Origin: Nannocystis pusilla
GTDB lineage: Bacteria > Myxococcota_A > Polyangia > Nannocystales > Nannocystaceae
DNA: 64,000 bases
Strand: one strand, 5' to 3'
NCBI RefSeq assembly: GCF_049060185.1
Contig: NZ_JBMEQO010000002.1
The notes beneath the pieces were generated by a model, which saw only the letters and a list, made by a program, of their open reading frames with translations, was not told the DNA's origin and did no database searches. Shown piece after piece: positions 4,036 through 61,458 of the stretch. The first letter of the stretch is position 1, and every line of letters begins with the position of its first letter. The translations under genes and the position numbers were made by a program.

Positions 4036-6953
4036 TCATCGGCGTGTGGCGATGAGCGTGACGCTGCCTCCACGCGCGAGCTCGAGGCGGAGCTCGGTCC
4101 CCACGGGCACACGCGTCAGGGCGGCGAAGCGATGCACGTGGTCGCCGGTGACGTCATGTCCGTCGACCGCGACGATCGCGTCGCCGACCCGCAGCCCGGC
4201 GTGCGCCGCGGGGCCGCCAGGCTGCACGGACGCGACGGTCGGCCGCCGCGCTTCCGCTCCTCCGTCGGGTCGTCTCGTCGCATCGTCATGCCGAGCTCGC
4301 CGGCTTGGTCCCCGGGCTGAAGCCGGCGTCGCGGCACCTGGAGCGGCGCCAGTTCGACCACACTGCCGTTCGAGATCACCGCGCGCGTCCAGAGGGTCTC
4401 GTGGTCGCTCGTCGCTCCGAAGCTCCTGGCGGTGACGATCACCGTCGCGTGGCCGACAGGCACGTCGGCGACCTCGAACCGGCCCTCCGCGTCGGACACC
4501 GAGCGCTCGTCGACGTGGTCCACCGAGCTGATGAACGCCTCTGTTCCTTCCGCGCCGAACTTCACGCGCATTCCCGGCACCGGCTCGCCGGTGTCGAGGT
4601 CGATCACGCGGCCACGAACGGTCACGCGACCCGCCAGCGCGACCTCGACCTGTCCGCGCTCGCCCGTCGCCAGCGTGACCTCGGCCTTGCCCGCGCCTTC
4701 CGGTGCCTCGACCGCGACCACGAACTTGCCTGCAGGCACCTGCGGGAACGCGAACGTCCCGTCGGTGCGGAAGAAGCTGTCTCGTACCTGGTAGCCGGTC
4801 GCCACATCGCGGAGCTCCACCGAGAATCGCTCCGGCCCGCCGCCGCCGGGCGAGCGCACCCTTCCGACCAGCGCTCCCGGCGCGGCGATCTTGACGACGA
4901 CCTCGCTGCCCAGCGCCACGCGCTCGACGATCCCTCGCCGCCGCCGCGCCGGTGGGCCACGAGCGTATATGTCCCTTCAGGCAGGTCGCCAAGCTCGAAT
5001 CTTCCGTCGACGTCGGTCATCCGCGGCCGCAGTCCGCGGTCCATGCTCCACCGCATGTCGCGCAAGGCGGCCCCTGGTGCGCCGCTCTCGGGCTCGTGCA
5101 AGACCTCGACGAAGACGTCGTCCTGCGCTGCCTCGTCGCCATCCACGACCCGTCCGGTGATCCTCCCGTCCGGGGCCTCGACGACGAGGTCGAGGACAGC
5201 GGTCTCGCCGGTCTCGACCTGCACGCGCGGCTCATCGCCGTCCTTGGCGTCGTGCATGCGCATCGGCTGGTAGCTCTTGCTCACGCTCGCCTGGTACGCG
5301 CCGGCAGCGAGGCCGGAGAGGCGGAAGCTCCCGTCGTCGAGGCTGGTCGTCTGCGCGTAGTTCGGCCCGCGAAGCAAGACTCGCGCACCGGCGATGGCGC
5401 GGCCGTGGACGTCGCGGACCTCGCCACGGACCTCGCCGGCCGCCGGAAGCTCGATGCGGAGGTCGTCGAGGTCATGCCCTTCACGAACCTCGACTTCGGG
5501 CCCTTGGAGGAGCTGCGGCGGATCTCCGGCCAACACGCGCAACGCATAGCGCCCCGGCAGCAGGCCCGTGAATTCGAACCGTCCGGCGTGGTCGGCCTCT
5601 GCGTGTCCGCTGGTCGACTGCGCATTCGAACGGCTCGGGTCGACCTGCGGGCTCACCGTCACCGTCGTCGCAGTGACGGGCTCTCGGGTCGTGGCCACGA
5701 CCGTGCCGCGGATCGTCTGACCCGGTCGGACCTCCCAGCGTAGCTCGCGGAGGCTGCGGTCGGCGATCGCCAGGGGCGGGTAGCTCGGCGCCGACACGAA
5801 CCCTTCGCACCGGACGTCCACCTTGTAACTCCCGGGCAGCAGCCCCGGGACCCGCACCCGGCCGTCGGGGGCGATCGTCGCATGACGCTGGCCTTGGGGA
5901 TCCGTCAGGATGACCGAGCCGCGATCGCACGTGCCCCGCCGGCGACCACGACTGTCCCTTCGACCAGGAAAGCCGGGTGCATGCGAACCTCCACCGGCGC
6001 GGAGGTTTCACCGAGGCCGAGCACCACCAGCGCCTCCGCAGCACCATGTCCCTCGTCATGCAGCGCTCGCGCCTTGTAGGCACCGGGTCGCAGCGCGTCG
6101 ATCCTGAAGTTTCCGGAGGCGTCGGTGAAGGCCGGTCCCTGGCGACCCCATCCGCCGCCGTCGAGCGCGCTCACCTCGGCGCCCGCGACCGGCGACCCGT
6201 CGTCGGCGCGCACCACCCGACCGAGCAGCACCGACTCGGGAGTCATGAGGATCTCGAGCGTCAATCCCGGTGCGCGCCCGGAGGCCTGCGTGTCCGCGTA
6301 GCCCTCCGCCGTCGCCCTCACCAGCACCTCGCCCGGGCGGACCCACAGCGAGAAGCTGCCGTCCGCGCCCGAGCGCCCGGCCGCGTCGCCCGCTTCGACA
6401 ATCGCCCCATCGACCTCTCCGCCGCCGAGGTCGCGCACGATCCCGACGAGCTTCACCCCGCTGGGCAGCAGGGTCATGTCGATGCCTCGCTCTTCCTGCC
6501 CGAAGCGCAGAGACACCAGCTCGCGCGCCAGGGCCCGGAGCCGCTCCGGTGCGCCTGCGGGATGAAATGCGGCGCGCTCGCGGTGACCCGATGCGGCACT
6601 GCCAGCAGGCCGTCCAGGCGATAAGAGCCGTCCGCCGCTGCGATCGTGCAAGGCCTCGCGCGCCGCTCGGACGCGCCGAGCGCCTCCGACGACGACGCGG
6701 CGCACACCGTCGCGGCCGGCACTGGGTGCCCCTCGGGATCGCGCACGTGCCCGGAGATGGCCGCCCGGTCTGCACGGCCCGGATCGATCGGCGTCCTCGC
6801 CGGTCCCTCGACCAGAGACTGCAGCACGGTTTGCGAGGCAGTCGGTCCCGCGGAGGGAGGCCCCGCCGGGGATGGCTCCGTGAGTGCGAGCCAGCCGGCC
6901 ACACCGACGATGCCGAGGCTCGTCACGAGGATGACTTTCGCAGCGGCGCTCAT
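4036..6953 (-). CDS. Large secreted or membrane-anchored protein made of carboxypeptidase-regulatory-like (CarbopepD_reg/Big-like) repeats with a C-terminal PDZ domain; at least four apparent frameshifts.
   Basis: It begins with an N-terminal TM/signal segment (MSAAAKVILVTSLGIVGVAGWLA). Repeated motifs such as GxVxDxxGxPVxGAxV…DGxFRLxGLxPGxY are spread over the ORF frames 6474..7010, 5905..7215, 4622..5857, 4116..4919 and 4036..4992. The C-terminus reads as a PDZ domain (GLRVGDAIVAVDGHDVTG…GTELRLELARGGSVTLI). The five segments follow one another in different frames, which is consistent with one gene broken by indels. Confidence 0.55.
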
Positions 6954-7904: not shown

Positions 7905-9287
7905 GATGGCGAGTCCGCGAATAGCGAACATCGGCGGTGCGCCGCAGCTGCATCAACAGCAGCAGCAACAGGGCCAGCAGCAACAGGCCCAGCAGCAACA
8001 GGCCCAGCAGCAACAGGGCCAGCAGCAACAGGTCCAGCAGCAACAGGGCCAGCAGCAACAGGTCCACGCGCCGATCTTTCCAGCGCAGGAGCAGGCGCAG
8101 GCGCAGGCGCAGGCGCAGGCGCAGCCGCAGCCGCAGCAAGGGCAGGGCGCGGCACCGCAGCAGCCGGCGGGGCTCATCGTCCCCGCGCAGCCGGCTGTGC
8201 TCGGCAACCCGGCGCCCGTCCCTCGCCCTGCGGGGCATTCTGGCAGATGGGCCAGGCCATCGGCCCCGCGGGTCCCGGGGCCTTGCCGCGGATCGACTAC
8301 GGCATGTTCGAGACCAAGCCCTACGATGTCCGCCTCGACGACGCGATGGCCTGGATCGCGAGGCATCGAGACACGGAGCCGGGTCTGCAGGCGGCCCTTC
8401 GCAACTGGCGTCGGTACACGCCCGAGGACGACCAGCGCTACCTCAGCCATTGGATGTCGCAGTCGGGCCTCGACCGCCGCTTCGCCGACGACCGCGAGAC
8501 CGCCCGCGCCATCATCCTGATGGCGGCGCTCGAGCACCCGAACGACCGCGCCCGCTGGCGGCAGGCCGCCCGCGACGTGGAGGCCGGCCGTCTCGACCTC
8601 TACACCGCGCGGCAGCGGGTGCGCCAGGCCTACGACGCCCGCCACAATACCCAGCAGAACCTCGAGGCCGCGCGCGACAGCCTGCGGACCGACCCGATCC
8701 GGTTCCTGAGCGACTACCCGCTCGTGATCGCCAGCACGCCGGGACGCGAAGGCCACCCGTACCGCCTGGTCATGGTCGGGGGACCTACCGGTTGACGAAC
8801 GACGCCTACGGCGTCCAGGGCATAGCGATCCACGGCGACACGATCCCCGCCATACCCGCACGCCACCTCGACCCGCAGAATCAGGCCCTGGTCGGCACGC
8901 TAGCGACCGGCGACATGACATTGACGACCCAGTTCTCCGGCTGCGCGTACGTGTTCCAGACCAGCGCCGACAAGCAGCATCTCGTCGCGACCCACCGCAA
9001 CCCAGGGATGAACGACGCGAGACAGCTCGAGGACGGCCGGTCGGGTGCCGACCTCGCCCGTGACCTCCGCGCCCATGCCCACTTCGACAACCCTCCACCG
9101 GACCCCGTGCCGATCCGCGTGTACGGCCGGCTGGACGCCGACGCCCCCGGGGAGCTTCGGCTATCGCTACGGCTACATGACGACGATCGTGGCGATCAAG
9201 GACGAGCACCAGCGGTGGCAGGTGTACGCGCAGAATCGCCTGCCCGACCACAGCCTGGTGGTCGAGCACCTCAACCCGCCGCCGTGA
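7905..9287 (+). CDS. Hypothetical protein with an N-terminal Gln-rich low-complexity tract; three apparent frameshifts (around 8230, 8790 and 9130).
   Basis: MASPRIANIGGAPQLHQQQQQQGQQQQAQQQQ… is followed by a protein-like body spread over ORFs 7864.., 8247.., 7937.. and 9045..9287 (…GMFETKPYDVRLDDAMAWIARHRDTEPGLQ… …TTQFSGCAYVFQTSADKQHLVATHRNPGMNDARQLEDG… …YRYGYMTTIVAIKDEHQRWQVYAQNRLPDHSLVVEHLNPPP). No family was recognised. Confidence 0.4.
7960..8140. repeat. Coding microsatellite: about seven copies of the 15-bp unit CAGCAGCAACAGGNC followed by (CAGGCG)n/(CAGCCG)n hexamer repeats.
   Basis: Direct reading gives cagcagcaacagggccagcagcaacaggcccag… then caggcgcaggcgcaggcgcaggcgcagccgcagccgcag. 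These encode the QQQQ(G/A/V) and QA/QP tracts at the N-terminus of the preceding CDS. Confidence 0.85.
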
Positions 9288-9812: not shown

Positions 9813-11744
9813 CTACTGCATGAAGCAATAGATCGGCTTCTTCCAGGCGCACGATTGCTGGCAGACGAATTGCGTCCACAGGCCGTCGGCCTTGTTCCAC
9901 TGGCCGCCGCCGGTGAAGCCGGGGGCGTTGCTGGTCCAGTTTTGGCAATCGGTGAAGTCGGCGAACATGGTGCCGTTGGTGATCGTGTTGGTGAAGGTGA
10001 GCTGGGAGACGCCGCTGCAGACGTTGGCGTCGGAGCCGGGCGGGGTCTTGAGCTCGGAGAGGTTGATGGCGGCGGCGATGTTGCCGTCGATGAGGTCGGC
10101 CCAGTTGTTGGCGACGAGGACGCCGTCGCGGCGGGCGTAGGGGATCGCCGACTTGGTGAAGCGGGTGACGGGGGTGCCGGTGTCGTCGCTCAGCCAGGCG
10201 CGGTAGGTGCCGGGGAGGCCGGCGGCCTGGGCGGCGGCCTGGCACTTCATGTCGGCGCCGGCGAGGCCGCCGAGGTTGCCGTCGAAGCCCTGGCTGGTGG
10301 CGAACACGACCTTGTGCGCCTTGCACTTCGAGCTGCAACCGTCGCCCTCGGCGAGGTTGCCGTCCTCGCAGTTCTCGCCGGCGGCGCTGTTGATGACGCC
10401 GTCGTTGCAGGCGGCGAAGGTGCAGTCGATGTCGCAGGTGGAGCTCTGGCCGCCGTGATCGCAGGCCTCGCCGGCGCTCTCGTTGAGGACCTCGTCGCCG
10501 CAGACGACGGCGGTGCAGTCGTCGTCGCAGGTGGCGGTCTCGGTGCCGGCGTCGCAGGTCTCGCCGGCGGCGCCGTTGACGGTCTGGTCGCCGCACACCG
10601 CGAGGGTGCAGTCGCTGTCGCAGGTGGGGCTGTCGCCGCCGGTGTCGCAGGCCTCACCGCTGGCGGGGTTGTGGTGGGCGTCGCCGCACTGCGGGAGGGT
10701 GCAGTCGCTGTCGCAGGCGGGGCTGTTGCCGGCGTCGTCGCAGGCCTCGGTGCCGGCGAGGACGAAGCCGTCGCCGCACACGGCGAGTTTGCACAGGGTG
10801 GTGCAGGCGTCGTCGTCGAGGTCGTTGCCGTCGTCGCACTCCTCGTCCATCTGCAAGATGCCGTCGCCGCAGGTGGCGAGGGCGCACTCGTTGGTGCAGG
10901 CGTCGTCGTTGACGTCGTTGCCGTCGTCGCAGGCCTCGAGCAGCTCGTGGACGATGCCGTCGCCGCACTCGGCGAGGATGCAGCCGACCAGACAGTCGTC
11001 GTTGTCGAGGTCGTTGCCGTCGTCGCACGGCTCGACGCCGACCTGGATGACGCCGTCGCCGCACACGGCGGTGGTGCAGGCGTTGGTGCAATCGTCGCCG
11101 TCGTCGAGGTTGCCGTCGTCGCACTCCTCGGTGAGCTGGACGATGCTGTCGCCGCAGACGGGGAGGCGACAGCCGGTCGAACAGCCGTCGTCCTCGATGT
11201 CGTTGCCGTCGTCGCACTCCTCGCCGACGAGCTCCTGGACGATGCCGTCGCCGCACACGGCGGCGATGCAGGCGTTGGAGCAGGCGTTGAGGTCGACGAG
11301 GTCGCCGTCGTCGCACTCCTCGCCCGGATCGACCTGACCGTCGCCGCAGATCGGCGGCGGGCCGGTGGTGCTGTCAGTCTCGCCAGTGGTGGTGGTGGTC
11401 GAGGTCGAAGTGGTGGTCGTGCCGTCGGTGATGGTGCCGTCGGTGATGGTGCCGTCGGTGACAGTGCCGTCGGTGCTCGTGATCGCGGTGTCGGTGACAG
11501 GGCCGGTGGTCGGCTCGAGGGTGGTGCCGGTCTCGGTGCCGCCGATCGTGCCGGTCTCGGTGGTCGGTGCGGTGGTGGTCGGCAAGTCGGGGCCGGTGGT
11601 GCTGCCTGCGGTGGTGGTGCCGTCCGTGTCGGTGGTGCCGGTGCCGGTGTCCGTGAGCACTGCAGTGTCGGTGCGACCACAGGCGAGGGCCGAGGCGAGC
11701 ATCACGAGACCCAGCGAACGACAAGCGAAGCTGTAAGCGAGCAT
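9813..11744 (-). CDS. Secreted Myxococcus-type cysteine-rich repeat protein (TIGR02232-like CxxCGDG…EECDDGN repeats) with a C-terminal DUF1554-like domain.
   Basis: A signal peptide (MLAYSFACRSLGLVMLASALACG) is followed by a Thr/Gly-rich linker. At least 12 tandem repeats match C-GDG-x5-E-x-CDDGN-x4-D-x-C-x3-C. The C-terminal domain reads …FATSQGFDGNLGGLAGADMKCQAAAQAAGLPGTYRAWLSD…. The gene lies in a single frame. Confidence 0.85.
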   Translation of the reverse strand: MLAYSFACRSLGLVMLASALACGRTDTAVLTDTGTGTTDTDGTTTAGSTTGPDLPTTTAPTTETGTIGGTETGTTLEPTTGPVTDTAITSTDGTVTDGTITDGTITDGTTTTSTSTTTTTGETDSTTGPPPICGDGQVDPGEECDDGDLVDLNACSNACIAAVCGDGIVQELVGEECDDGNDIEDDGCSTGCRLPVCGDSIVQLTEECDDGNLDDGDDCTNACTTAVCGDGVIQVGVEPCDDGNDLDNDDCLVGCILAECGDGIVHELLEACDDGNDVNDDACTNECALATCGDGILQMDEECDDGNDLDDDACTTLCKLAVCGDGFVLAGTEACDDAGNSPACDSDCTLPQCGDAHHNPASGEACDTGGDSPTCDSDCTLAVCGDQTVNGAAGETCDAGTETATCDDDCTAVVCGDEVLNESAGEACDHGGQSSTCDIDCTFAACNDGVINSAAGENCEDGNLAEGDGCSSKCKAHKVVFATSQGFDGNLGGLAGADMKCQAAAQAAGLPGTYRAWLSDDTGTPVTRFTKSAIPYARRDGVLVANNWADLIDGNIAAAINLSELKTPPGSDANVCSGVSQLTFTNTITNGTMFADFTDCQNWTSNAPGFTGGGQWNKADGLWTQFVCQQSCAWKKPIYCFMQ

Positions 11745-12167
11745 GCTCGCGAGGGTACGAGAGTCGAGCGAAGGCCGGCAACTCGCGCCGCCGCAGCCGA
11801 CGTCCGCGGGCAGGTGCGCCCTGGGCCCACCCATCCGGCCGAAGCCGCGCCCGCGGAGCGGCGCCGGAGGAACATGCAGCGCGTCCGTGCGCGGACCGTT
11901 ACGCGGCCGTCAGGTCGGAGCAGTCCGCCGCGCGATAGCGACGTGAAAACGGCAAGCGCGGCGGGTCCTCACGCGGGCGACGCGAGGACCCTCGAAGGTG
12001 GAGCGCAGCGATCGCTTCCGCGGCGAGGACGGGTCGAGAGGAGGCGCGCCGCGGGAAGGCTCGGCGCCGGTGAAGGCGAAGGGGAGGCGCGTCGGACGGT
12101 CGCGGCTGGCGGGAAGCCAGGGCCCGTGCTCGGGGAGCGAGGCGAGGGCGTCGACAGTGCGGACGGG

Positions 12168-12413
12168 TCAGGCAAGCTCGTCGCGCCACTCGATGTCGAT
12201 GCCCTCGCCCTCTTCGGGTACGTGCTTGCGCAGGAGGGCGAGCAGCTCGGCGTCGACCTGGTTCTCCTCGAGGTAATCGAGGGTGTCGCGGTCGATGTAG
12301 TAGTCGCGGTCGTCGGCGCTCTCTTCGACGAGGAGATCGATGAGGTCGCGCAGCTGGTCGTCGGTGATAGGTCCGATCAGGGCGCCGGTCTGCTTGTTGT
12401 AGAGGCGAGTCAC
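12168..12413 (-). CDS. Small acidic hypothetical protein (~81 aa, GTG start).
   Basis: VTRLYNKQTGALIGPITDDQLRDLIDLLVEESADDRDYYIDRDTLDYLEENQVDAELLALLRKHVPEEGEGIDIEWRDELA has GC3-rich codons and a clean stop at 12168. A tandem hairpin-repeat array lies immediately upstream. Confidence 0.55.
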   Translation of the reverse strand: MTRLYNKQTGALIGPITDDQLRDLIDLLVEESADDRDYYIDRDTLDYLEENQVDAELLALLRKHVPEEGEGIDIEWRDELA

Positions 12414-12530
12414 GCGGGGATGGTAGCCGGTCCGGGCGGCGGCGCGACGCTGGCCGGACGGCGGGCGAGCGAGCCGCCGGAGCCGCGCGAGGCGGCTCTG
12501 CTCGCTCGCGGCGGGGTCGTCCGGCCGGCG

Positions 12531-12870
12531 CGGAAGACCTGGCTGATGGGGCAGGTCCTGGCCGTGGAGATATTCGCGCGGACGCGGTCGTCCGCCAGGG
12601 CCAGAAAAATCCTGGCTGATGGGCAGGCCCTGGTCGAGGGGACGTTCGCGCGGAGACGTTCGTCGGCGCGGCGCGGAAGACCTGGCTGAAGGGACATGTC
12701 CTGGCCGCGGAGATGTTCGCACGGACGCGGTCGTCCGCGGCCGCACCTGGTCGATGGGGCAGATCTTGTCCGCGGAGATATTCGCGCGGACGCGTTCGTC
12801 CGCGCGGCCCAGAAAAACCTGGTCGATGGGACAGGTCCGGCCCGCGGAGGCGACCGCGCGGGCGGATCTG
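12531..12870. repeat. Array of five tandem ~65-74-bp imperfect direct repeats, each carrying two short inverted repeats (GACCTG-N10-CAGGTC and GCGGACG-N4-CGTCCGC); the third unit contains GGGACATGTCC.
   Basis: Unit starts fall at about 12535, 12609, 12678, 12743 and 12816. The frames differ between units (see the differing translations in ORFs 9624..12689, 12619..13038 and 12410..12697), so the repeat is at the DNA level and non-coding. It lies between the stop of the lipoprotein gene (12885) and the start of the small acidic gene (12413). Confidence 0.85.
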
Positions 12871-12884
12871 GCCCTTAAGTCAGG

Positions 12885-13769
12885 TCAGACGGGGCAGCCG
12901 GGCTCGCCCATGTCGCAGCAGAGGCAGACGGAGGTGCCCATGTCGTCGCCGCAGAAGCCGTGGTCGTACAGGGTCATCATGGCGTCGCCGACCTCGGTAC
13001 ACTGGACGAAGCAGTCGAACTGCGACAGCTTGCCGTAGATGCAGGTGTTGAGGTTGGTGTCGTCCTCGCAGCTGGCGGGGTCGCTGTTCTCGCAGGGGGT
13101 GCCGGGGCCGTCGCCGCAGATGAACTCGACGGTCTTGCCGGTGTCGACGCAGCCGTAGGCGAAGTCGTAGCCGTCGAAGCTGCAGCTGTCCTTGGCGAGG
13201 TTGGGCTCGAGCACCCAGGTGGCGCCGTCGCAGCGGTAGACCTGGCTGCCCTCGGGGCCGCAGACCTCGGTCATCGTGCACCAGAACTGGCCGTTCTGGC
13301 AGTTCTCGGGCGGCGGCTGCTCGCCCATGCACTCGACGCCGCCGGTGGTGGTGCCCTCGCTGGTGTCAGTGGTCTCGGTGGTGCTCGCGGTCGACTCGGT
13401 GGTGGTCGTGGTCGAGCTGGTCTCCGGCAGCGTGGTCGACTCGGTGGTGCCGGGGCCGGTGGTGGTGGTCGGCTCGCTGGTCGAGGTCGGCTCGACGGTG
13501 GTGGTGCCGACGCTCGAGACCGTGGTGGTGTCCTCGACCGGACAGCAGGACAGGTCGTTCGGGTCGTCGGTGCAGTACTCGAAGCCGTCGTTGCAGTAGC
13601 AGGTCTCGCCTTCGAGGTACGAGTTGGGGTCGTCGCACACGAACTCGCCGGTGTCGGAGTCGGGGGTGTTCGTGGTGTTGCCGCCGCCGATGATGCAGGC
13701 CGACGCGAGCCCCAGGAGGGCCAGGAGCGCGATTTTGCGAGGTAAGCGAGCCATGGCGAAAAATGACAT
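12885..13769 (-). CDS. Secreted lipoprotein with a Thr-rich linker and a Cys-rich C-terminal domain.
   Basis: A signal peptide and lipobox (…LALLGLASAC) are followed by a long T/S/E/P-rich linker and many conserved Cys residues (…CMGEQPPPENCQNGQFWCTMTEVCGPEGSQVYRCDG…). The gene lies in a single frame. Confidence 0.75.
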   Translation of the reverse strand: MSFFAMARLPRKIALLALLGLASACIIGGGNTTNTPDSDTGEFVCDDPNSYLEGETCYCNDGFEYCTDDPNDLSCCPVEDTTTVSSVGTTTVEPTSTSEPTTTTGPGTTESTTLPETSSTTTTTESTASTTETTDTSEGTTTGGVECMGEQPPPENCQNGQFWCTMTEVCGPEGSQVYRCDGATWVLEPNLAKDSCSFDGYDFAYGCVDTGKTVEFICGDGPGTPCENSDPASCEDDTNLNTCIYGKLSQFDCFVQCTEVGDAMMTLYDHGFCGDDMGTSVCLCCDMGEPGCPV

Positions 13770-13785: not shown

Positions 13786-14997
13786 TCAGGGCAATTTATC
13801 GCCCGTGTCGCACAGGAAGCGGAAGCTGTAGCCGCCCGGCTGGGGCAGGGCCTTGTAGCTCTTCACGCTGCCGTCCTGGTTCCACTGGTAGAGCATCGAG
13901 CAGCCCTCGCACGCCCCGAGCTCGTCGGGCTCGCCGCTGCCGACGGCGACATCGCTGACGAACCACGCCTGATCGTCGCCCGCGCGCCACTCGGGACAGT
14001 CGAGCCCGTTGAGCGGCGCGTCGACGCAGCTCTCGCCCGCGGTGACTGGATAGATCCCCAGGATCTGCAGGTAATCGGGGCCGGTCTTCACCGTGCCGCC
14101 GCCGACCGGCTCGAGGTTGTCGCCGGTGGCGACCTCGTAGGCGACGCCGAGGTGCGCCGCGCTGCGCGGGATGAACAGCTGCATGCCCCAGTCGGCGCAG
14201 GCGGCCTCGGCGGTGGCGGCGGTGGCCGGGTTGGGGTTCATGCCGCCGGCGACGTCGACCTTGAGGAAGGTGTAACCACCGCCGTCGACGGCCGGATCGA
14301 GGGCGCACCAGACGTCGATCGGGTCCATGATGCCTTCGCGGCGGACGCTGAAGACGCCGCTGACGGCCTCGGGAGCGGCCTCCAGCCACTCGAGGCAGCT
14401 GTGGGCGTACTTGCAGGTGGGCAGGCAGTCGGGGCCGTCCTCGCAGTCTTCGTTCTCGGGGTCGACCTGGCCGTCGCCGCAGCCGGGGGCGGCGGCGCTG
14501 CAGTCGGCGAGGCAGCTGCCGTAGGTGCCGTCGTTCGTGCCGTCGTCGCAGACCTCGCCGCCGTTGAGGACGCCGTCACCGCACCTGGGGAGGAGGCAGG
14601 CGGTGGTGCAGGCGCCGTCGTCGGCGTTGTCGGGGCCGAGGTCGCACTCCTCGGCGTCCTTGGCGACGAGGCCGTCGCCGCACGTGGCGTTGCGACAGTC
14701 GCTGGTGCAGGCGCCGTCGTCGGCGTTGTCGGGGCCGAGGTCGCACTGCTCGTCGGCGTCGACGAAGCCGTCGCCGCACACGGGCTCGCCCGTGGTGCCG
14801 GGCTCGCTGGTGGTCGGCTCGCCGGTGGTCGGCTCGGTCGCGGAGGCGCCGGTGGTGTCGACGCCGGTGGTGGTGCCGGGGCCGGTGCTCGCGGTCGACT
14901 CGGTCTCGGTGTTGGCGTTGGGGTCGAGGCAGGCCTGCAGGGCCAGGGCCGTGACGCTCAGTTGCAGCGAGATCCGGAGACGCGGCGCGGTGGGCAT
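13786..14997 (-). CDS. Secreted lipoprotein with Myxococcus-type Cys-rich repeats (CGDG…C(D/E)DGxxD) and a C-terminal globular domain.
   Basis: MPTAPRLRISLQLSVTALALQAC is a lipoprotein signal. Four CGDGxV…EECDLGPDNADDGAC-type repeats precede a C-terminal domain containing …DGGGYTFLKVDVAGG…. Confidence 0.75.
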   Translation of the reverse strand: MPTAPRLRISLQLSVTALALQACLDPNANTETESTASTGPGTTTGVDTTGASATEPTTGEPTTSEPGTTGEPVCGDGFVDADEQCDLGPDNADDGACTSDCRNATCGDGLVAKDAEECDLGPDNADDGACTTACLLPRCGDGVLNGGEVCDDGTNDGTYGSCLADCSAAAPGCGDGQVDPENEDCEDGPDCLPTCKYAHSCLEWLEAAPEAVSGVFSVRREGIMDPIDVWCALDPAVDGGGYTFLKVDVAGGMNPNPATAATAEAACADWGMQLFIPRSAAHLGVAYEVATGDNLEPVGGGTVKTGPDYLQILGIYPVTAGESCVDAPLNGLDCPEWRAGDDQAWFVSDVAVGSGEPDELGACEGCSMLYQWNQDGSVKSYKALPQPGGYSFRFLCDTGDKLP

Positions 14998-25928: not shown

Positions 25929-26708
25929 CTAGCCGCTGCAGGGGCCGCCCTGGGCGACCCAGCCGTCCTGGCCGCAGACGTAGTACTGGAAGTTCTCGCC
26001 GCAGACCTGATGGCCGCATTCGGTGGCATACACGGTGTTGCCGAGGTGGTCCTTGCCGCCGGGGCAGTCGCAGCCGTCGTCGCCGCCGCAGACGCCGCCC
26101 TTGGCGACCCAGCCGTTCGGCTCGCAGGCGTAGTACTGGAAATTTTCGCCGCAGATCTGCTCGCCGCAGGTGGTCGCGTGCACGGTGTTGCCGAAATTGT
26201 CGGTGCCGTCGGGGCAGTCGCATTCGTCGCCGTCGTCGTCGCCGTCGCCGCAGACGCCGCCCTGGGAGACCCAGCCGTTTTGCCCGCAGACGTAGTAATG
26301 GAAGTCCTCGCCGCAGACCTGATGGCCGCAGTCGGTGGCGTTCACGGTGTTGCCGAGGTAGTCCTTGCCGCCGGGGCAATGACAGCCGTCGTCGCCGCCG
26401 CAGACGCCGCCTTGGGCGAGCCAGCCGCCCTGGCCGCAGACGTAGTACTGGAAGTCTTCGCCGCAGACCTGATAGCCGCAGACGTCGGTGTCCACAGGGT
26501 TGCCGAGGTGATCGGTGCCGCCGTCGCACGGACAGCCGCCGCCGTCGCGCAGGGCGATCGCGGACGCGTCGGCGCGAGCGGCTGGTTCGTCGTCGCAGGC
26601 CAGCGGGGCGAGCACGGAGGCGCTCAGCAGCAGGGCGGGGCCGAGGCGCGTGGCGGAGAGGAGACGGCGCGAGAGCGAGGCGTGAGGACGCGTGAACGGG
26701 ATGGACAT
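25929..26708 (-). CDS. Secreted Cys-rich protein made of four tandem ~45-aa repeats (CxCPGGKDxLGNTVxATxCGxQVCGExFQYYVCGQxGWxxQGGVCGGDDG).
   Basis: It has a signal peptide (MSIPFTRPHASLSRRLLSATRLGPALLLSASVLAPLAC) and four near-identical Cys-rich repeats, in a single frame. It is flanked on both sides by the ~75-bp structured repeat. Confidence 0.75.
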   Translation of the reverse strand: MSIPFTRPHASLSRRLLSATRLGPALLLSASVLAPLACDDEPAARADASAIALRDGGGCPCDGGTDHLGNPVDTDVCGYQVCGEDFQYYVCGQGGWLAQGGVCGGDDGCHCPGGKDYLGNTVNATDCGHQVCGEDFHYYVCGQNGWVSQGGVCGDGDDDGDECDCPDGTDNFGNTVHATTCGEQICGENFQYYACEPNGWVAKGGVCGGDDGCDCPGGKDHLGNTVYATECGHQVCGENFQYYVCGQDGWVAQGGPCSG

Positions 26709-26902
26709 GGACGATTCCTTGGTGGCCGCGCAGGCTCGCGGCGTGGCGCAGGCGGAGGCCGCGGCCGAGCACGACGCTGGCGCGATCCGGCCTCCTGCGG
26801 GCATGACAGGCGGACGGATCCGTTGTCGCAGCGCGTGGACGAAAAATTCGATCGCGCGTGGGCGCGCGGGTCCGGGGCGTGGCGACGACAGGACGTCGGA
26901 TC

Positions 26903-27030
26903 GACAGTCAGGGCTGGCCGCCGACAGACGCGATTCACGATCCGGGCTGCGTGCGTCTGTCGGAGACGATCGTGTGAGGCTTCCACGATCCGGGCTGCGT
27001 GCGTCTGTCGGGGACGATCGTGCGAGGCGT
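26903..27030. repeat. Copy B of the ~75-bp structured repeat plus an adjacent ~48-bp partial tandem copy, lying upstream of the Cys-rich gene.
   Basis: The same element as 25556-25632 is here present 1.6 times in tandem; the partial copy repeats CACGATCCGGGCTGCGTGCGTCTGTCGGnGACGATCGTG. Confidence 0.75.
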
Positions 27031-29097: not shown

Positions 29098-29690
29098 GGA
29101 GATGTCCCGGGGGACATGTCTTCCGGGACGGGGGCCGAGGTGGTCGGAGCAGCTGTCTCGTCGGAGGCGGGCGGCGGGGCGGTAGGGCCGGCTGTCCCCG
29201 AGGACATGTCTTCGCGGGTGGACGAGGGCTGGGACGATGTCCCTGGGGACAGGTGCGCGACGAGGGCCGGCGGGGCTGTGGCGGCTGTCCCGGGGGACAG
29301 GTGCTCGGAGGCGGGCGACGAGGCGGCTGGGGCCGAGGATCCAGAGGATATCCCTGGGGACAGGTTCGCGGCGAGGACCGGCGGGGAGGTGGTGGCTGTC
29401 CCGGGGGACAGATGCTCGGAGACGTGCGGCGGTGCGGCTGCGGCCGCGAGCAGGAGGGCTGGCCCTGAGGACAGGTACGCAGGGACGGGCGGGGCCGCGG
29501 ACAGGACGGATGCCCGCGGGGACAGGTGCACGGCGGCGGGCGGCGGGGCGGACGGTGTGACGGTCGGGGCCGCGGTCAGGATGGATGTCCGCGGGGACAG
29601 GTGCACGGCGGCGGGCGGCGGGGGGTCGGGGTCGGGGAAGCCGACGCGGGTGTCCTTTCGGGCATGTCACCCGAGACATGTCCCGAGGGT
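29098..29690. repeat. Array of about 10 imperfect tandem units (period ~45-90 bp), each built on the palindrome (G/A)TGTCC(C)-N2-3-GGGGACAGGTG; the first two and last units carry GGACATGTC variants.
   Basis: Units start at about 29101, 29190, 29237, 29283, 29348, 29395, 29461, 29508, 29583 and 29649. The array sits in the divergent region between the PAP2 start (29023, minus) and the next plus-strand gene (29942). Stop-free ORFs on both strands (HLSPGT…/…VPGDRC…) are a consequence of the repeats. Confidence 0.85.
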
Positions 29691-29941
29691 TCGGCGGGCC
29701 GCCAGGCGCCCAGGTCGGGGGTGCGCGCCAGTGGGTGGGCGGCCGCAGGCGGAGCGGCGAGGGCGAGGACCAGGGCCAGGGACAGGCAGCGCGACATGCT
29801 CGGTCGGACGAGTATGCCCAATCGCGGCCCGGCGGCGCCGAGGGAGATGGCTTCGGGGACAGGTGATCGCGGGCTCAAGAGCGCGTCGATCGCGCTGCGC
29901 TGGCAGAGGACGTCCGGGTCGGGCTACGTTGACGTCCAGCG

Positions 29942-45447: not shown

Positions 45448-45653
45448 GGCGGGGGTGATAGGGGTCGATGGGACATGCCCGAGAGGACATGCGCCATGGG
45501 CGTGGCAAACTTCTGGGACATGTCCTGGAGGACATTTCCGAAGAGACAGAGTCGAACGTCCGCGCGATGCTCTCGTGGACAGCCCACGGGCGCGGCAGCC
45601 TGTCGAGACATGTCTGCATGGACATGCTCGATGGGACAGACAATGAGAGGCGC

Positions 45654-48114: not shown

Positions 48115-48300
48115 GCGATCTGTCCGCAGGGACAGGTGACGGGCGGAGGCTGTCCGCGAGGACAGGTGAATTCCGACTGTCCGCGGGGACAGGTGGAGAT
48201 GGCGCGTCCGCGAGGTCGAGGTTCCGGCTGTCCGATAGGGCAGGTTGGAATCGGGTGTCCGTGGGGACAGGTAGGCTGTCCGTGGGGACAGGTGCGTCGA
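48115..48300. repeat. Tight tandem array of about 7 copies (period ~20-30 bp) of the palindromic unit (C)TGTCCGNGGGGACAGGTG.
   Basis: Units lie at 48121, 48151, 48178, 48229, 48257 and 48277, plus a degenerate copy at about 48205. Each is an inverted repeat TGTCC-N5-GGACA followed by GGTG. Because of the array, the plus-strand ORF reads CPxGQV hexapeptide repeats and the minus strand HLSPRT repeats. Confidence 0.85.
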
Positions 48301-49196
48301 CGGGCAGGGACAGCGGGGCCGGCTCCGGCGCGGCGTCGTGGCCGTGGGCGGCCAGGCCCGGGGCCAGCTCGGCCGACAGGGTGCCGCGGCGGGCGTCGGC
48401 CCAGCGGCCGGGGCGGGGCCTTGCAAGGTGTCGCCGGGCTCGGGAGCGGCGAGCGGAGAAGTGCTGTCCCTCAGGACAGGTCGCACGGGGGCCGGGACGG
48501 CGGGCGGCGGGGCCGGGCCGATCGAGAGCAGGGTGGTCGGCGGGACGGGAGCGGCGAGCAGCCTGGCCGAGGGGCCGGGCTGGTGGCGGGCGTGGAGCCG
48601 CGGGCTCGGCGGCGGGGCCTCGAGGTCGGGTTCGGGGCTGACCTTCGGGACAGGTGCGCTGTGGACCAGGTCGCTGACTGCCTGCTGGATCGCCCGCTCG
48701 TAGAGGGCCAGGGCGTCGGCGACGGCCGGCGGCAAGCCGTGGGGCTGCCGGCACGCAGGGCAGTCGGCGGCGTCGCGGAGGTCGGCGAGCGAGAGCGCGT
48801 GCTGGCAATGCGGGCAGCGCAACGCGAGCGTCGGAGAGAGCACGGCGGGACCATACCGCAGAACACGGGCGGCGCACCGGCCTGCGGGCGCGGGCGTGGG
48901 CGCGCAGGCGGAGGGAGCGGCCGGGGATGACGACAGCCGGCGTCGGCGGCGAGATCGCCGAGCGGGCTCGTCGGTGGCGCGACGGTGCCGAGCGCGGTCG
49001 AGATCGCGGCCGGGCGCGTGACGAGATCGACAGGGACGGGCGGTGACGGCGGTCCGCGAGCGGAGGACGGGGCGGGACGCAGTTCGTGGCCACGGCCCGG
49101 CGGCGGCGCTCTGCGAGCGCTGGCGGCCCGGGGCCACGAATCGGTCGCAGGCGGCGCCGGGCGCGGGCGAGGATGCGCGCGGCGGCGACTCGCGGT

Positions 49197-51853: not shown

Positions 51854-52011
51854 CCGCCGAGGGGTTTGGGCGCTGGCGAGGACGCTGTTCCGCCCGCAAC
51901 GCGCGGCCCGCTGCGTGGTCCGGGCGCGCCGGCGCAAGGGCTGAGCCTGGGCCTGTCCTTCGAGGCATGTGGCGAGTGCCATGTCCTCGAGGACATGGCA
52001 CTCGGGCCAAG

Positions 52012-53622: not shown

Positions 53623-53714
53623 AGACTGTCCGAAGGGACAGGTGCGTGCGACGGGCCGTTCGGGGTGACGATCTCGGCACCATGAGAAGACTGTCCGAAG
53701 GGACAGGTGCGTGG
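53590..53714. repeat. Tandem duplication (2 x ~62 bp) covering the 3' end and stop codon of the preceding gene; each copy ends in the palindrome GACTGTCCGAAGGGACAGGTG.
   Basis: gggccgttcgaggtgacgatcgcggtgcagtgaagactgtccgaagggacaggtgcgtg is immediately followed by gggccgttcggggtgacgatctcggcaccatgagaagactgtccgaagggacaggtgcgtg. Confidence 0.8.
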
Positions 53715-54452: not shown

Positions 54453-54750
54453 GGGCCAGAACGTGGCGGAACACCTGGCCTGCAGGCGCTGGCGTCGATC
54501 GGGGGCGATGCGCGAGGACGCGCGGGCGCCGGAGCGTTGTGGCGGGGACCACACGGATCTGCTCCAGGTTCGCGAGCGGGCGCGGTCGAGCGCGGGGCAC
54601 CGCGGGCGAGCACGCCGCTCGCGCCGAGAAGCGCTGCTGCGCGAAGAGACCCGCGCGCCCGAGAGGCACGGGCGTCGACCTCGCATGTCTGCGAGGACAT
54701 ATACAAGGACATGTCCTTGTGGACATGTCCTGATGGACAGTGCTCGCGAC

Positions 54751-57999: not shown

Positions 58000-58598
58000 G
58001 TGCCCGCGGTGCTGCGGTCGATGGTGATCGGCGGCTATCCGCTGGTCGTGTACCTCGGCATGACGCGCTGGAGCCCGCGCACGTTGGCGCTGGTGCTGGC
58101 GGCGGCGCTGCTCCGGGGCTCTTGCTGCGCCTGCGCGAGGCCCGGCGCGAGGACCTGTGGCCGGTGCTGCGGGTGCCGCTGTCGCTGTTCGGGCTGTTCG
58201 CGGTGGCGGCGCTGTCGGGCGAGCAGCGGCTGTTCATGGCCCTGCCGGTGCTGGTCAACCTGGGACTGTTGGCCAACTTCGCCGCCAGCCTGCGCGGGCC
58301 GGTGTCGCTGGTCGAACGGTTCGCGCGCCTGCAGGAGCCCGACCTGCCGCCCGGCGGGCCGGCGTACTGCCGGACCTGGACCAAGATCTGGTGCGGCTTC
58401 TTCGTCGCCAACGCGCTCGTCAGCGCCGGCCTGGCGCTGTGGGCCCCGGTGGCCTGGTGGACGCTCTACACCGGACTTTTGGCCTACCTGCTGATCGGGG
58501 TAATGTTCACCGTCGAGTACGTCGTCCGCAAGGCGACCTTCCGTCGCTTCGGCGACGGTCTGCCCGACCGCCTGCTCCGTCGACTGCTCCGCGCATGA
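58000..58598 (+). CDS. Small integral membrane protein of the pigment-type cluster, with a frameshift at about 58110.
   Basis: ORF 58000.. (MPAVLRSMVIGGYPLVVYLGMTRWSPRTLALVLAAALL) joins ORF 57996..58598 (…LWPVLRVPLSLFGLFAVAALSGEQRLFMALPVLVNLGLLANFAASL…WAPVAWWTLYTGLLAYLLIGVMFTVEYVVRK…). Several TM helices are present. Confidence 0.55.
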
Positions 58599-60010
58599 AG
58601 TCGTTCGTCCCGCTCGTCCACACCGATCCCGTGGCGCTCGTCGCCGTCGGCGAGGCCGGCGCACGCACGGCCGGCGAGCTCATGCGCGACGCGAGGGCCG
58701 TCGCGGCGCGGCTGCCGGCGCCCGCGCCAGGCAGCGAGGTGCTGGTGGTGTGCGGCGACCGCTACCACCTGGCGGTGACGACCCTGGCGGCGTGGCTGCG
58801 CGGCCACGCGGTCGCGCTGCCGCCCAACGCCCAGCCGGCGGCCGTGCGCGAGCTGGCCGGGCGGCCGTCGGTGGTCGCGCTGCTGCACGACTCCGACCTG
58901 GCCGACGCGCAGGACGTCCGCGAGTGGTTGGAAGGACATGTTCCAGGGACATGGCCGATCCGACATGGCCCGAAGCGCTGGCGGCCGATCGCCGGCTGGC
59001 GGTCGTGTACACCTCGGGCAGCACCGGCGATCACCAGCCGTGCGCCAAGACGGCCGCGCAGCTGCTCGGCGAGGCGCAGGCGCTGGCGGCCACGTTCGCC
59101 CTGCGGGCCGGGGAGGTGGCGCTGGCGACGGTGCCGCCGTACCACCTCTACGGGCTGCTGTTCGGGATCCTGGCGCCGCTGGCCGCGGGGCGGCGTTCGC
59201 CCGCGAGACGCCGCTGCACGCCGAGACGGTGGCCCGGGCGGCGCGGCAGGTGGAGGCGACGGTGCTGGTGAGCACGCCGGCGCACCTGCGCGGCCTGACT
59301 GTGCTGACGCGCGGCGACCTGCCGCCGCTGTCGCGGGTGTTCTCGTCGGGCGCGCCGCTGCCGCGGGCGACCGCGGACGAGCTGCTGACGAAGCTGGGCC
59401 TGCAGGTGACCGAGGTGTACGGTTCGTCGGAGACCGGCGGGATCGGCTGGCGGCGGCACGAGGATGTTTTAAAGACATGTCCCCGGAGCCAGCCTGGACG
59501 CCGCTGCCGGGAGTGACTGTGGAGGTGGCGGCAGAGGGCCGGCTGCTGCTGCGCTCGCCGTTCCTGGCCCCGGACGCGCCGGTGCCGTACCCGTGCGAGG
59601 ACCGCGTCGAGGTCGACGCGCGCGGCGGGTTCCACCTGCGCGGGCGGCTCGATGGGGTGGTGAAGATCGCCGGCAAGCGGGTGGCGGTGGCCGAGGTCGA
59701 GCAGCGCCTGCTGGCGCTGCCGGCGGTGGCCGACGCCGCGGTGGTGGCGGTCGAGTCGCCGGGCGCCCGCGGGCACGAGCTGGTGGCCGCAGTGGTCGCG
59801 CGCGAGGCCGGGCGCGACGCCGGCGAGCTGGTGGCCGAGCTGCGGCGGGCGCTGCTGCCGTGGTTCGACCAGGTGGTGGTGCCGCGGCGGATCAAGGTGG
59901 TGCCGGCGCTGCCGCGCGAGCCGAGCGGCAAGCTGACGCGGCGCAAGCTGCACGCGCTGCTCGGGCTCGCGGGCGAAGAGGAAGTCGCGGCGGGTGGCCC
60001 GAGGGACATG
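58595..60010 (+). CDS. AMP-dependent synthetase/ligase (acyl-ACP/CoA ligase-like), with a frameshift at about 58940; in this assembly no stop codon separates it from the following dehydratase domain.
   Basis: The N-terminus MKSFVPLVHTDPVALVAV… is followed by the AMP-binding motif LAVVYTSGSTGDHQPCAK and conserved A-domain core motifs (…YGSSETGGIGW…, …GKLTRRKL). The frames of ORF 58157..60616 and ORF 58750..59271 are joined by a 1-nt shift inside a GGACATG-rich stretch. Confidence 0.75.
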
Positions 60011-60129
60011 TCCGTAAGTTCGGCGAGTGACGCGCCGAGCGCGGGATCGGGACCGGGTGACGCACGGGACATGTCCGCCGGGACAGAGGGCCCGGGCGCG
60101 TCGGTGAGTGGCCCCAGGGACATGTCCGC

Positions 60130-60505
60130 AGGGGCAGAGGGCCCGGGCGCGTCGGCGTTCGCGCTGCGCGGGCATACGCGGCGCGACGAGGGCGGCGCGT
60201 CGGTGCACGAGGTCGAGGTGGGGGTGCCGGTCGACCTGGCGTTCTTCCGCGGGCACTTCGACGCGCTGCCGGTGCTGCCGGGGGTGGCGCAGCTGACCGC
60301 TCTGGTAGTGCCGCAGGTGGCGGCGCTGCGGCCGGAGCTGGGGCCGCTGCGGCGGGCGGCGCGGCTGAAGTTCACCCGGCCGATCGCGCCGGGCGACGCC
60401 CTGCTGCTGCGGCTCGAGGTCCGGGGACTCAGGTCCGCTTCTCCCTGGCGCGGGCCGGCGAGGTGGTCACGGCGGGGGCGCTCGAGTACGAGGCGCGCGG
60501 AGGCT
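60130..60505 (+). CDS. Hot-dog-fold (FabA/FabZ-like) dehydratase domain or protein, with a frameshift at about 60435.
   Basis: …VHEVEVGVPVDLAFFRGHFDALPVLPGVAQLTALVVPQVAAL…RLKFTRPIAPGDALLLRLEV… matches the 3-hydroxyacyl-ACP dehydratase hot-dog signature. The true C-terminus (…FSLARAGEVVTAGALEYEARGG*) is reached after a 1-nt shift. Confidence 0.6.
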
Positions 60506-60635
60506 GAGGCGGTGCGTATGGCCGAAGGGGCAGGTCGTTGCCAGGTGTCCGGGAGGACAGGTCGTCCGCCGACGGGCGGCGGGCCGGATGCGCCCCGCGT
60601 CGGGAGGCGGGCATGAGCGCGGACGGGGGCAGGAC

Positions 60636-61425
60636 ATGTCCCGAGGGACAGGTGAAGCCGGGGCCGCGGCGTTCCGGCCGTGCGCGCTGATCCCGACCTT
60701 CGACAACCCGCGGACGGTGCGGGACGTGGTGCTGCGGGTCAAGGCGCACCTGCCCGACGTGGTGGTCATCGACGACGGCTCGGGGCCGGAGGGCCGCGCC
60801 GCGGTCGAGGCGATCGGGGCGGAGGGGCTGGCGCACGTGCGGCGACGGCCGCAAAACGGCGGCAAGGGGCGGCGGTCAAGACCGGGTTCCAGTTCGCCCA
60901 CGAGCTCGGCTACACCCACGCGCTGCAGGTCGACGCCGACGGGCAACATGACCTCAAGGACATCCCGCAATCCTCGCCACCGCGCGCGAGCGGCCGAACG
61001 CGCTGATCCTCGGGGCGCCGGTGTACGACGCGTCGGCGCCGAAGGGGCGGCTCATCGCCCGCAAGATCACGCTGTTCTGGACCAACTTCGAGGCCGGTCG
61101 CGGGGTCATCACCGACCCGATGTGCGGCTTCCGCGTGTACCCGCTGGTGCCCGCGCTGGCGCTCGGGCGCACCGGCGACCGCATGGACTTCGACATCGAG
61201 ATCGCGGTCCGCCTGGTGTGGGCCGGGGTGCCGGTGATCAACCTGCCCACCAAGGTCCGCTACATCGGCCGCGACGAGGGCGGGGTGTCGCACTTCCGCG
61301 TGTTCGGCGACAACGTCAAGATCTCGTGGCTGCACACCCGGCTGTCGTTCCAGCGGGTGATGGTGCGCCCGTGGATCAACCTCTACCGCCGCCTGCGCCG
61401 CCCGGCGCTGCCGGCCGGCCGCTGA
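60636..61425 (+). CDS. Family-2 glycosyltransferase, with a frameshift at about 60870.
   Basis: …CALIPTFDNPRTVRDVVLRVKAHLPDVVVIDDGSGPEGRAAVE… and (other frame) …HALQVDADGQHDL… then …ITDPMCGFRVYPL… are GT2 (DxD, Q/RxxRW-like) hallmarks. The candidate start ATG lies at the centre of a GGACATGTCC palindrome. Confidence 0.7.
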
Positions 61426-61458
61426 CCGGGCTGCGCGAGAGGACAGGTTCGATCGGCC

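Follow-up and report, generated by a model that had tools for sequence, protein, structure and literature searches.

In Mycobacterium tuberculosis, MIRU units contain small ORFs that are coupled to the flanking genes, and whole units are dispersed. As VNTRs, these direct tandem repeats of 40-100 bp occupy the spacers that separate co-directional genes in a high-GC bacterium; the upstream stop codon and the first unit touch, and the copy number varies from strain to strain. Hairpin-only intrinsic terminators that are poor in U-tracts have also been described for high-GC bacteria. Such a stem-loop follows the stop codon by a few nucleotides; two convergent genes sometimes share one, a T-run comes next in some cases, and the sequence varies from gene to gene.

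REPs and BIMEs, which are known from Enterobacteria and Pseudomonas (Nunvar 2010, PMC2817692; Bertels & Rainey 2011, PMC3116915), are short imperfect palindromes that are extragenic and reside mostly in the 3' flanks of genes. They are highly over-represented and lineage-specific, possess an asymmetric 5' extension, form clusters after genes, and have been proposed to act as RNA hairpins at 3' ends. The tag of a REP reads GTAG or CGTC, and the units of a BIME alternate. Further GTAG- or CGTC-tagged palindromic repeats, such as SMAG (Di Nocera 2013, PMC3733652), are abundant intergenic stem-loops that sometimes occur in tandem; no myxobacterial genera are mentioned among those searched for in that survey.

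Nannocystis is a large-genome myxobacterium that is mined for natural products. We describe herein a tandem array in 64 kb of Nannocystis pusilla DNA (the whole stretch of 64,000 nucleotides is referred to as the window), together with the palindrome family to which the core of the array belongs. All the traits of REPs and BIMEs listed above, apart from the tag and the alternation, recur in Nannocystis, and the array itself has a short imperfect palindrome (22-nt core) and an extragenic location. The Nannocystis core is, however, shorter (14-22 nt) and has no GTAG/CGTC tag, the array units are direct whereas those of a BIME alternate, and conservation between copies does not extend to the loops and flanks. 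The direct units and the missing tag set the array apart from BIMEs as strictly defined. Of the three possibilities offered in an earlier note on this DNA, a BIME-like REP array comes closest; a dispersed family of extragenic palindromes and the occurrence of other arrays agree with that suggestion, whereas the alternating units and the GTAG/CGTC tag are absent. With SMAG, the Nannocystis repeats have in common that they are abundant, tagged, intergenic and sometimes tandem stem-loops, but the tag and the stem sequence differ.

The likeness to MIRU VNTRs extends to direct tandem repeats of 40-100 bp in a spacer between co-directional genes, a high-GC host, a first unit that touches the upstream stop codon, and a copy number that is polymorphic among strains. 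Unlike MIRUs, the array units do not code, and relatives elsewhere are limited to the 22-nt core; without coding capacity or dispersal of the whole unit, the array does not qualify as a MIRU. Hairpin-only terminators resemble the Nannocystis hairpins in lying a few nucleotides after a stop codon, sometimes between convergent genes and sometimes next to a T-run, but the Nannocystis stem has the same sequence everywhere and is short. In its presumed action the array comes closest to a REP cluster, and in appearance to a MIRU-type VNTR. On balance, we favor the reading that it is a copy-number-variable minisatellite in a 3' flank, composed of REP/BIME-like 3'-end hairpin modules that would act at the end of a transcript. 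The array is non-coding, varies between strains, is anchored at the stop codon of the upstream gene, and has neither a conserved RNA fold nor a match to a known RNA family.

Organization of the array

The earlier note had reported a tandem array between the stop codon of a lipoprotein gene and the start of an 81-aa acidic ORF, and both the array and its placement were borne out. TRF called a period of 72 with 4.9 copies and 72% matches at 12507-12849, and manual phasing gave five unit lengths of 73, 70, 65, 72 and 68 bp. A unit-profile HMM run on the 64-kb window recovered exactly five copies at 12538-12885 (E 2e-20 to 4e-14), while the rest of the window gave no match better than E ~0.01 (0.014). 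The 22-mer core, with up to 3 mismatches allowed, occurred 4 times, versus 0.00 expected from shuffles. Read along the transcribed strand, the upstream gene and its stop codon come first, then the array, a 122-nt spacer and the small gene. The features are as follows.

12885-13769, minus strand: upstream gene, 294-aa Cys-rich secreted/lipoprotein-like protein (from the ORF list; strong GC3 periodicity)
12536-12837, sense strand minus: tandem array of five units, all direct and 65-73 bp long; a further, degenerate copy lies on the stop codon of the upstream gene
12865-12886, minus strand: copy 0, degenerate hairpin core GACCTGACTTAAGGGCCAGATC, beginning within the stop codon (TGA-CCTG...)
12766-12837, minus strand: sense unit 1, 72 nt, with core GACCTGTCCCATCGACCAGGTT at 12816-12837
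12811-12817: TTTTTCT of sense unit 1, after the core (the AGAAAAA of the earlier note)
12786-12803, minus strand: second hairpin of sense unit 1, GCGGACG-AACG-CGTCCGC
12701-12765, minus strand: sense unit 2, 65 nt, with core GATCTGCCCCATCGACCAGGTG at 12744-12765
12721-12738, minus strand: second hairpin of sense unit 2, with a 6-bp core
12630-12700, minus strand: sense unit 3, 71 nt, with core GACATGTCCCTTCAGCCAGGTC at 12679-12700, which includes GGGACATGTCC; its second hairpin is degenerate
12558-12629, minus strand: sense unit 4, 72 nt, with a core carrying a 1-nt deletion, GGCCTGCCCATCAGCCAGGA, at 12610-12629
12603-12609 and 12578-12595, minus strand: TTTTTCT and second hairpin of sense unit 4
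12536-12557, minus strand: core of sense unit 5, GACCTGCCCCATCAGCCAGGTC, the sole exact GACCTG-N10-CAGGTC; the remainder of the unit grades into conserved sequence preceding the small gene
12426-12535, minus strand: spacer between the array and the small gene, with a 10-bp perfect inverted repeat (12465-12474 / 12500-12509)
12420-12425, minus strand: TACCAT, a -10-like hexamer 6 nt before the GTG start, within the block CCGGCTACCAT
12168-12413, minus strand: downstream gene, 81-aa acidic protein with a GTG start (from the ORF list)

The five units and copy 0 share one orientation. Copy 0, in effect a degenerate sixth copy at 12865-12886, lies beyond the coordinates first given for the array. 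The array had been said to stand immediately upstream of the small gene, but its final core ends 122 nt before the start codon. The inverted repeat of the spacer is not conserved in the other strains compared.

The units are less uniform than the earlier note had supposed. A GACCTG-N10-CAGGTC stem-loop is exact in one of the five units, the others having one to three mismatches; GCGGACG-N4-CGTCCGC is exact in two of the five (three, if judged by the 6-bp core) and degenerate in two; and the AGAAAAA tail, described as conserved, is present in two, with GGAAGA ending two others. The GGGACATGTCC palindrome of the third unit was found, at 12691-12701. With stems of 5-6 bp and a 10-nt loop or an internal mismatch, the hairpins are weak.

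The view that the array is non-coding was upheld. Codon-position GC (GC3) periodicity is strong in both flanking genes and absent in the array region, which is therefore non-coding, and most unit lengths are not divisible by three. Two candidate coding readings were rejected for lack of GC3 periodicity, namely a 192-aa ORF at 12168-12746 and an N-terminal extension of the small protein, which is annotated as such (123 aa) in N. exedens; coding is also rejected because indels that are not multiples of three occur upstream of the conserved GTG. Identity between whole units is 69-85%, the segments between cores are homologous to one another, and a CRISPR array was rejected on the grounds that its "spacers" would be mutually homologous.

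Searches of the window and 125 other loci gave no further copy of the whole ~70-bp unit, a uniqueness that is extrapolated, like the copy number of the family per genome, from 64 kb plus ~270 kb of sampled loci. As to copies outside the array, which the earlier note had raised, whole units thus have none in the window and these 125 loci, but relatives of the core motif are many.

The upstream protein possesses a signal peptide and matches nothing in Pfam or NCBIfam, and myxobacterial Cys-rich repeats are present in the flanking proteins. Its TGA stop codon (12885-12887) overlaps the first hairpin copy. The 81-aa protein is identical to N. pusilla WP_421068203.1 and has no Pfam or NCBIfam domain. 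Block CCGGCTACCAT, including TACCAT, is invariant in all seven loci aligned, and no Shine-Dalgarno sequence precedes the GTG. The block may be the small gene's own promoter, giving a leaderless or near-leaderless mRNA; with such a putative promoter beside the GTG, the array would lie upstream of any leader. A scan of 11800-13100 for the sigma-70 promoter consensus gave no site. CTGGCTGATGGGGCAGG and the block preceding the GTG were also considered as sigma-54 promoters and rejected by eye, the spacing or the -12 element being a misfit.

Copy number and placement among strains and species

The orthologous locus was compared in four N. pusilla genomes (including the window), N. exedens, N. bainbridge and a distant metagenomic relative. 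The comparison of copy number across strains, which the earlier note had proposed, gave a different count at the same site in each N. pusilla strain.

N. pusilla CP185339: spacer of 235 bp, ~2 units, one truncated by a deletion
N. pusilla Na p29: spacer of 394 bp, 4 units
N. pusilla, window strain: spacer of 471 bp, 5 units
N. pusilla GCA_049337375: spacer of 525 bp, 6-7 units

The flanks of the array are conserved in all four genomes. Sense unit 3 is 89% identical to unit 3 of Na p29, and the two are therefore orthologous; sense unit 2 and unit 2 of Na p29 are 84% identical. Within the window strain, sense units 4 and 1 are 85% identical and thus represent a within-strain duplicate, and duplicate units with 89% identity are found within GCA_049337375. 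Orthologous units, within-strain duplicates and differences in copy number together are the classical VNTR pattern. As such, the array is an ordinary polymorphic spacer; it is a useful marker for typing strains and is likely to cause assembly breaks.

According to the official gene calls, all N. pusilla strains compared have an array whose start falls within the TGA, and orthologues of the upstream protein (288-289 aa) directly precede it in all N. pusilla strains and in N. exedens. Copy 0 is better preserved in two orthologous loci, as TGACCTGTCC-CGCA-GGCCAGGTC (L127) and TGACCTGTCC-TGAA-GGCCATGTC (L128). In N. exedens, the orthologous stop codon is directly followed by six units (61-83 bp), which share with the N. 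pusilla units only GGACCTGTCCCATCGRCC; between this array and the small gene lies a 367-aa gene with an AT-rich upstream region. One draft contig of N. exedens terminates inside the array.

In N. bainbridge the small gene is present with a different upstream neighbor (LysR) and no array; the distant metagenomic relative likewise has the small gene without the array, and locus L006 keeps both the small gene and the conserved promoter-like block without it. Across species, then, the array tracks the upstream stop codon and not the small gene, and therefore belongs to the 3' end of the upstream gene. The array probably arose from a founding copy on the stop codon and grew by tandem duplication accompanied by loss of units; slippage or unequal recombination would account for the range of ~2 to 7 units per strain.

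Tests of RNA structure

A structured 5' leader or small RNA had been among the possibilities offered for the array. In its general form, this explanation holds that the array is the 5' leader of the small gene or an independent sRNA, for example a multi-hairpin sponge for a protein. The 487-nt region indeed folds better than shuffles on both strands (z = -4.6 and -3.8), as expected for any array of inverted repeats, and each plus-strand unit of the window contains a GGA segment. Folded singly, however, the units gave inconsistent results: sense-strand z values ranged from 0.0 to -3.1, and shuffles of the second plus-strand unit folded as well as the unit itself. Searched against Rfam, the whole window gave no match at the gathering score, and a local search at E <= 10 returned noise only (best E 0.074, a miRNA model).

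Covariation gave the same picture. In 21 copies of hairpin 1 from four strains, 89.7% of the stem cells are paired, a level equalled by 259 of 500 column shuffles, and no genuine compensatory change was seen; in hairpin 2, which many units have in broken form, pairing is 77% and covariation is absent. RNAalifold found 0 compensatory pairs, and its consensus reached only -5 kcal/mol. What is conserved in the inverted repeats is their sequence rather than a structure.

The comparison of loci weighs in the same direction: the number of units ranges from ~2 to 7 between strains, a gene separates the array from the small gene in N. exedens, N. bainbridge does without the array, and the conserved promoter-like block stands between the array and the start codon. 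The GGA/TCTCC segment is missing from several L128 units. A CsrB-like sponge read from the plus strand was rejected, the GGA segment not being conserved between strains. We therefore regard a leader or sRNA as highly improbable, and the array is unlikely to be a conserved structured leader, riboswitch or sRNA. The earlier note had added that the lack of both a conserved secondary structure and other genomic copies would argue for a mere locally duplicated spacer; no conserved structure was found, but the core has many relatives elsewhere.

A scan of 11800-13100 with a hairpin-plus-T terminator consensus gave no site. TTTTT follows hairpin 1 in two of the five units, and the T-run is absent in the other strains. 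The combination of a G+C-rich hairpin directly followed by a U-tract, by which intrinsic terminators are recognized, is not found in the array.

The palindrome family

On the sense strand, the core of the unit reads GACCTGYCC-CATC-GRCCAGGTC, i.e. GACCTGTCC-CATC-GACCAGGTC, a 22-nt imperfect palindrome. It is a variant of a genus-specific, extragenic palindrome family, ACCTGTCC-N4-GGACA, with the core TGTCC-N4-GGACA. The array core corresponds to the family palindrome extended on both sides and with an A-to-C change in the 3' arm. In the 64-kb window, TGTCC-N4-GGACA occurs 21 times, versus 0.05 expected, and all 21 palindromes lie in DNA without codon periodicity (p = 3e-10). The palindrome is usually extended on one side, as ACCTGTCC(C) or, when the opposite strand is read, as (G)GGACAGGT. 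The window contains 18 instances of ACCTGTCCC, versus 0.45 expected, all of them on the minus strand.

When 185,579 species genomes were scanned for TGTCCNNNNGGACAGGTG, 28 of the 120 matches listed were from Nannocystis or Nannocystaceae, and the other matches listed were single chance occurrences in unrelated taxa; this enrichment among the matches listed indicates that the family is lineage-specific. Array-type sequences, CCTGYCC-N4-GRCCAKG, are present at 9 other, non-orthologous sites in ~340 kb of Nannocystis DNA, where a composition-based estimate gives ~0.2. The metagenome matches listed for the 16-mer core were mostly single chance matches, L193 and L171 being the informative ones; the core is present in three tandem copies 43-46 bp apart on one high-GC metagenomic contig, and directly after a TGA stop codon on another.

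An alignment of 110 instances showed invariant stems, a free 4-nt center and flank conservation that ends at ~3 nt, with a conserved asymmetric extension, (C/G)ACC, 5' of the stem. An invariant stem with a variable loop would also be expected from a sequence-specific DNA-binding dimer. The uniformity of the stem sequence may reflect a dedicated binding factor, a RAYT-type transposase or such a dimer.

These properties bear on whether the palindromes are true REPs, that is, non-autonomous mobile elements spread by a RAYT, with the array as a BIME-type cluster made by the same enzyme. Short, extragenic, imperfect palindromes of very high local density that are specific to one genus and cluster after genes are what such a system would leave behind, and the (C/G)ACC extension sits at the foot of the hairpin, where REPs carry their tag. 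On the other hand, all units are direct and none alternates, the tag is neither GTAG nor CGTC, the loops and flanks differ among copies in a way unlike recent transpositions of a single element, and the literature searched reports no REP/RAYT system in Myxococcota. Spread by a RAYT is accordingly an unlikely explanation.

No description of REPs in Nannocystis or myxobacteria, or of the motif itself, was found in the literature searched, and the family appears to be undescribed, REP-like and tied to the 3' ends of genes. The wider interest of the locus is this apparently undescribed family of REP-like 3'-end hairpins. If the hairpins mark transcript ends, they would improve the annotation of operons and terminators where canonical terminators are hard to find, and would give engineers compact insulator parts; in the case of transposase dependence, REP/RAYT biology would extend to Myxococcota.

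Positions of family members and other arrays

Positions were counted with our own gene calls, based on codon usage, in the window and 32 Nannocystis loci. The counts below are subject to crude gene calls (62% of the window covered) and to ascertainment bias, as the loci were chosen for holding one family member.

Palindromes per 20-nt bin after 183 stop codons, bins 1-5: 15, 7, 5, 7, 3
Palindromes per 20-nt bin before start codons, bins 1-5: 1, 3, 2, 0, 0

In the first 20-nt bin after stop codons, CCTGTCC is found in the sense orientation 14 times versus 6 in the antisense orientation. Examples of placement after a stop codon are TAGACCTGTCCTTTGGGACA and TGACACCTGTCCCGAGGGACAGG. Members of the family are often found singly between convergent genes; a lone hairpin lies between convergent stop codons at L038 and L113, a hairpin followed by TTTTTT is present at L076, and a run of palindromes follows the stop codon of a TPR gene in N. 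bainbridge. Several clusters of the window (29100-29860, 48117-48650) are hundreds of bases from any confident gene end.

From this placement we infer that the hairpins may act as terminators or stabilize mRNA. Under the favored reading of the array as 3'-end hairpin modules, they would function at the 3' end of the upstream transcript, as proposed for REPs, either as weak terminators, mostly without a U-tract, or as stem-loops that block exonucleases, and the array would possibly insulate the upstream gene from the separately promoted small acidic gene.

The same placement disfavors a multi-site regulatory region, which the earlier note had listed: the family lies just after stop codons in the sense orientation. 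In such a region, a dimeric regulator or nucleoid-associated protein would bind TGTCC/GGACA and GACCTG/CAGGTC as double-stranded DNA and control the small gene from several sites. The invariant stems with a free 4-nt center suit it, the 5-N4-5 arrangement being typical of dimer operators, and so do the absence of compensatory variation and the regular spacing of sites (14, 21-30 and ~70 bp). The final core, moreover, is ~120-145 nt upstream of the small-gene start, and N. exedens has a family palindrome that is similarly distant. Yet it is the upstream stop codon, and not the small gene, that the array accompanies, while N. bainbridge and L006 keep the small gene and the promoter-like block without the array; family members are most frequent within 20 nt after a stop codon, show a sense bias there and also occur between convergent genes, where there is no promoter; and about one palindrome per 3 kb is a very high density for a specific regulator. 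We consider an operator array improbable.

At that density, thousands of palindromes per 12-Mb genome are obtained by extrapolation. A more specific version of the 3'-end reading would be that ACCTGTCC(C)-N3/4-GGACA is a sequence-specific 3'-end hairpin of Nannocystis, located no more than ~20 nt from stop codons, recognized by a dedicated factor and prone to form arrays; this version is possible, though we hold it doubtful. The factor may be a termination or RNA-processing protein, or a RAYT-like single-strand transposase. The symmetric 9-bp form, ACCTGTCC-N4-GGACAGGT, is absent from ~340 kb although each extended half is common, and this absence fits specific recognition.

The minus-strand-only occurrence of ACCTGTCCC in the window had suggested a replichore-polar (KOPS-like) motif. 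In the 33 loci, motif orientation tracks the gene strand and the local GC skew coupled to it, and motif positions along the contigs of N. pusilla Na p29 and N. exedens show no single switch. Since orientation follows the gene strand and not the position on the chromosome, the replication-polar explanation was dropped.

Tandem arrays built on the palindrome also occur elsewhere, both in the window and at other Nannocystis loci.

Window, 29100-29860: periods of 111 and 75 bp
Window, 48117-48295: period of ~27 bp
L081: 35 bp x 7.5
L028: 69 bp x 4.5
L031: 83 bp x 3.8, directly after a stop codon

A genus-specific palindrome family

The TGTCC-N4-GGACA palindrome, of which the core of the five-unit array is a variant, occurs 21 times in the window versus 0.05 times expected, and defines a family that is specific to the genus. 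All 21 copies lie in non-coding-like DNA, where they are frequently grouped in clusters, and a longer form, GGGACA(G/T)GT(G/C), is frequent. The copies of ACCTGTCCC in the window are all on the minus strand (18 of 18). Four of the sites contain further tandem arrays built from the palindrome.

Sites of the palindrome family in the window
29100-29860, family sites; tandem array at 29236-29623 with periods of 111 bp and 75 bp
45470-45535, family sites
48117-48655, family sites; tandem array at 48117-48295 with a period of ~27 bp
51982-51995, family site
53627-53705, family sites
54695-54740, family sites in a tandem array with a period of 14 bp, a concatemer of GGACATGTCC
59990-60150, family sites in a tandem array with a period of ~57 bp, within the long ORF 58157-60616
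60519-60655, family sites
61440-61495, family sites

The array at 59990-60150 is in frame in its ORF and is flanked on either side by AMP-binding_C and FabA-like Pfam domains; either the ORF represents two genes, or the array occupies a linker that tolerates repeats.

The family seems to avoid perfect stems of 9 bp. In about 340 kb of Nannocystis DNA (the window plus the sampled loci), the extended halves ACCTGTCC and GGACAGGT are each common, and there are 0 copies of the fully symmetric ACCTGTCC-N4-GGACAGGT. Where a copy is extended on both sides, its inner stem is mismatched, with GGCCAGG in place of GGACAGG.

The small acidic gene and its upstream region

In an alignment of the region upstream of the small acidic gene from seven loci, the CCGGCTACCAT block (within 12414-12430, minus strand) is invariant in all seven, and only three positions vary between it and the GTG start codon. 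Because this invariant block contains TACCAT, a -10-like hexamer, and no Shine-Dalgarno sequence precedes the GTG within 12414-12430, the sequence suggests that the transcript may be leaderless or near-leaderless. The 81-aa acidic product (12168-12413, minus strand) has no domain match in Pfam or NCBIfam, and its homologues, of 76-91 aa, occur only in Nannocystis-like sequences. Its label in RefSeq and UniRef, "galactosyldiacylglycerol synthase", is probably a propagated misannotation.

The strongest local hairpin lies in the spacer between the array and this gene; it is not conserved in other N. pusilla strains.

12465-12509, inverted repeat GCGAGCGAGC/GCTCGCTCGC, 10 bp without mismatch, loop of 25 nt

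Between the array and the small acidic gene, N. exedens alone has an additional gene, likely an insertion, whose product has no Pfam match; the 60 bp in front of this gene are strikingly rich in AT.

4770-5967 of the N. exedens locus L001, 367-aa gene between array and small acidic gene

In a second N. exedens assembly (L002), the contig end falls within the array.

Other repeats in the window

Simple repeats also occur at two other places, namely CAGCAGCAACAGGGC repeated 7.1 times (94% match) and followed by nine copies of GCGCAG (7960-8136), and a 48-bp unit repeated 1.9 times (95% match; 26936-27028). The window also encodes clustered secreted proteins, which share the Cys-rich acidic repeat of myxobacteria (DUF4215/TIGR02232).

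9813-11834, minus strand, secreted Cys-rich-repeat protein cluster
13786-14997, minus strand, same cluster
25929-26804, minus strand, same cluster

The DUF4215/TIGR02232 protein genes carry long tandem repeats at the DNA level (93-192 bp and 150-312 bp); one protein of the cluster has an endostatin-like C-terminus, and one has a fibrinogen-like GGGWT domain.
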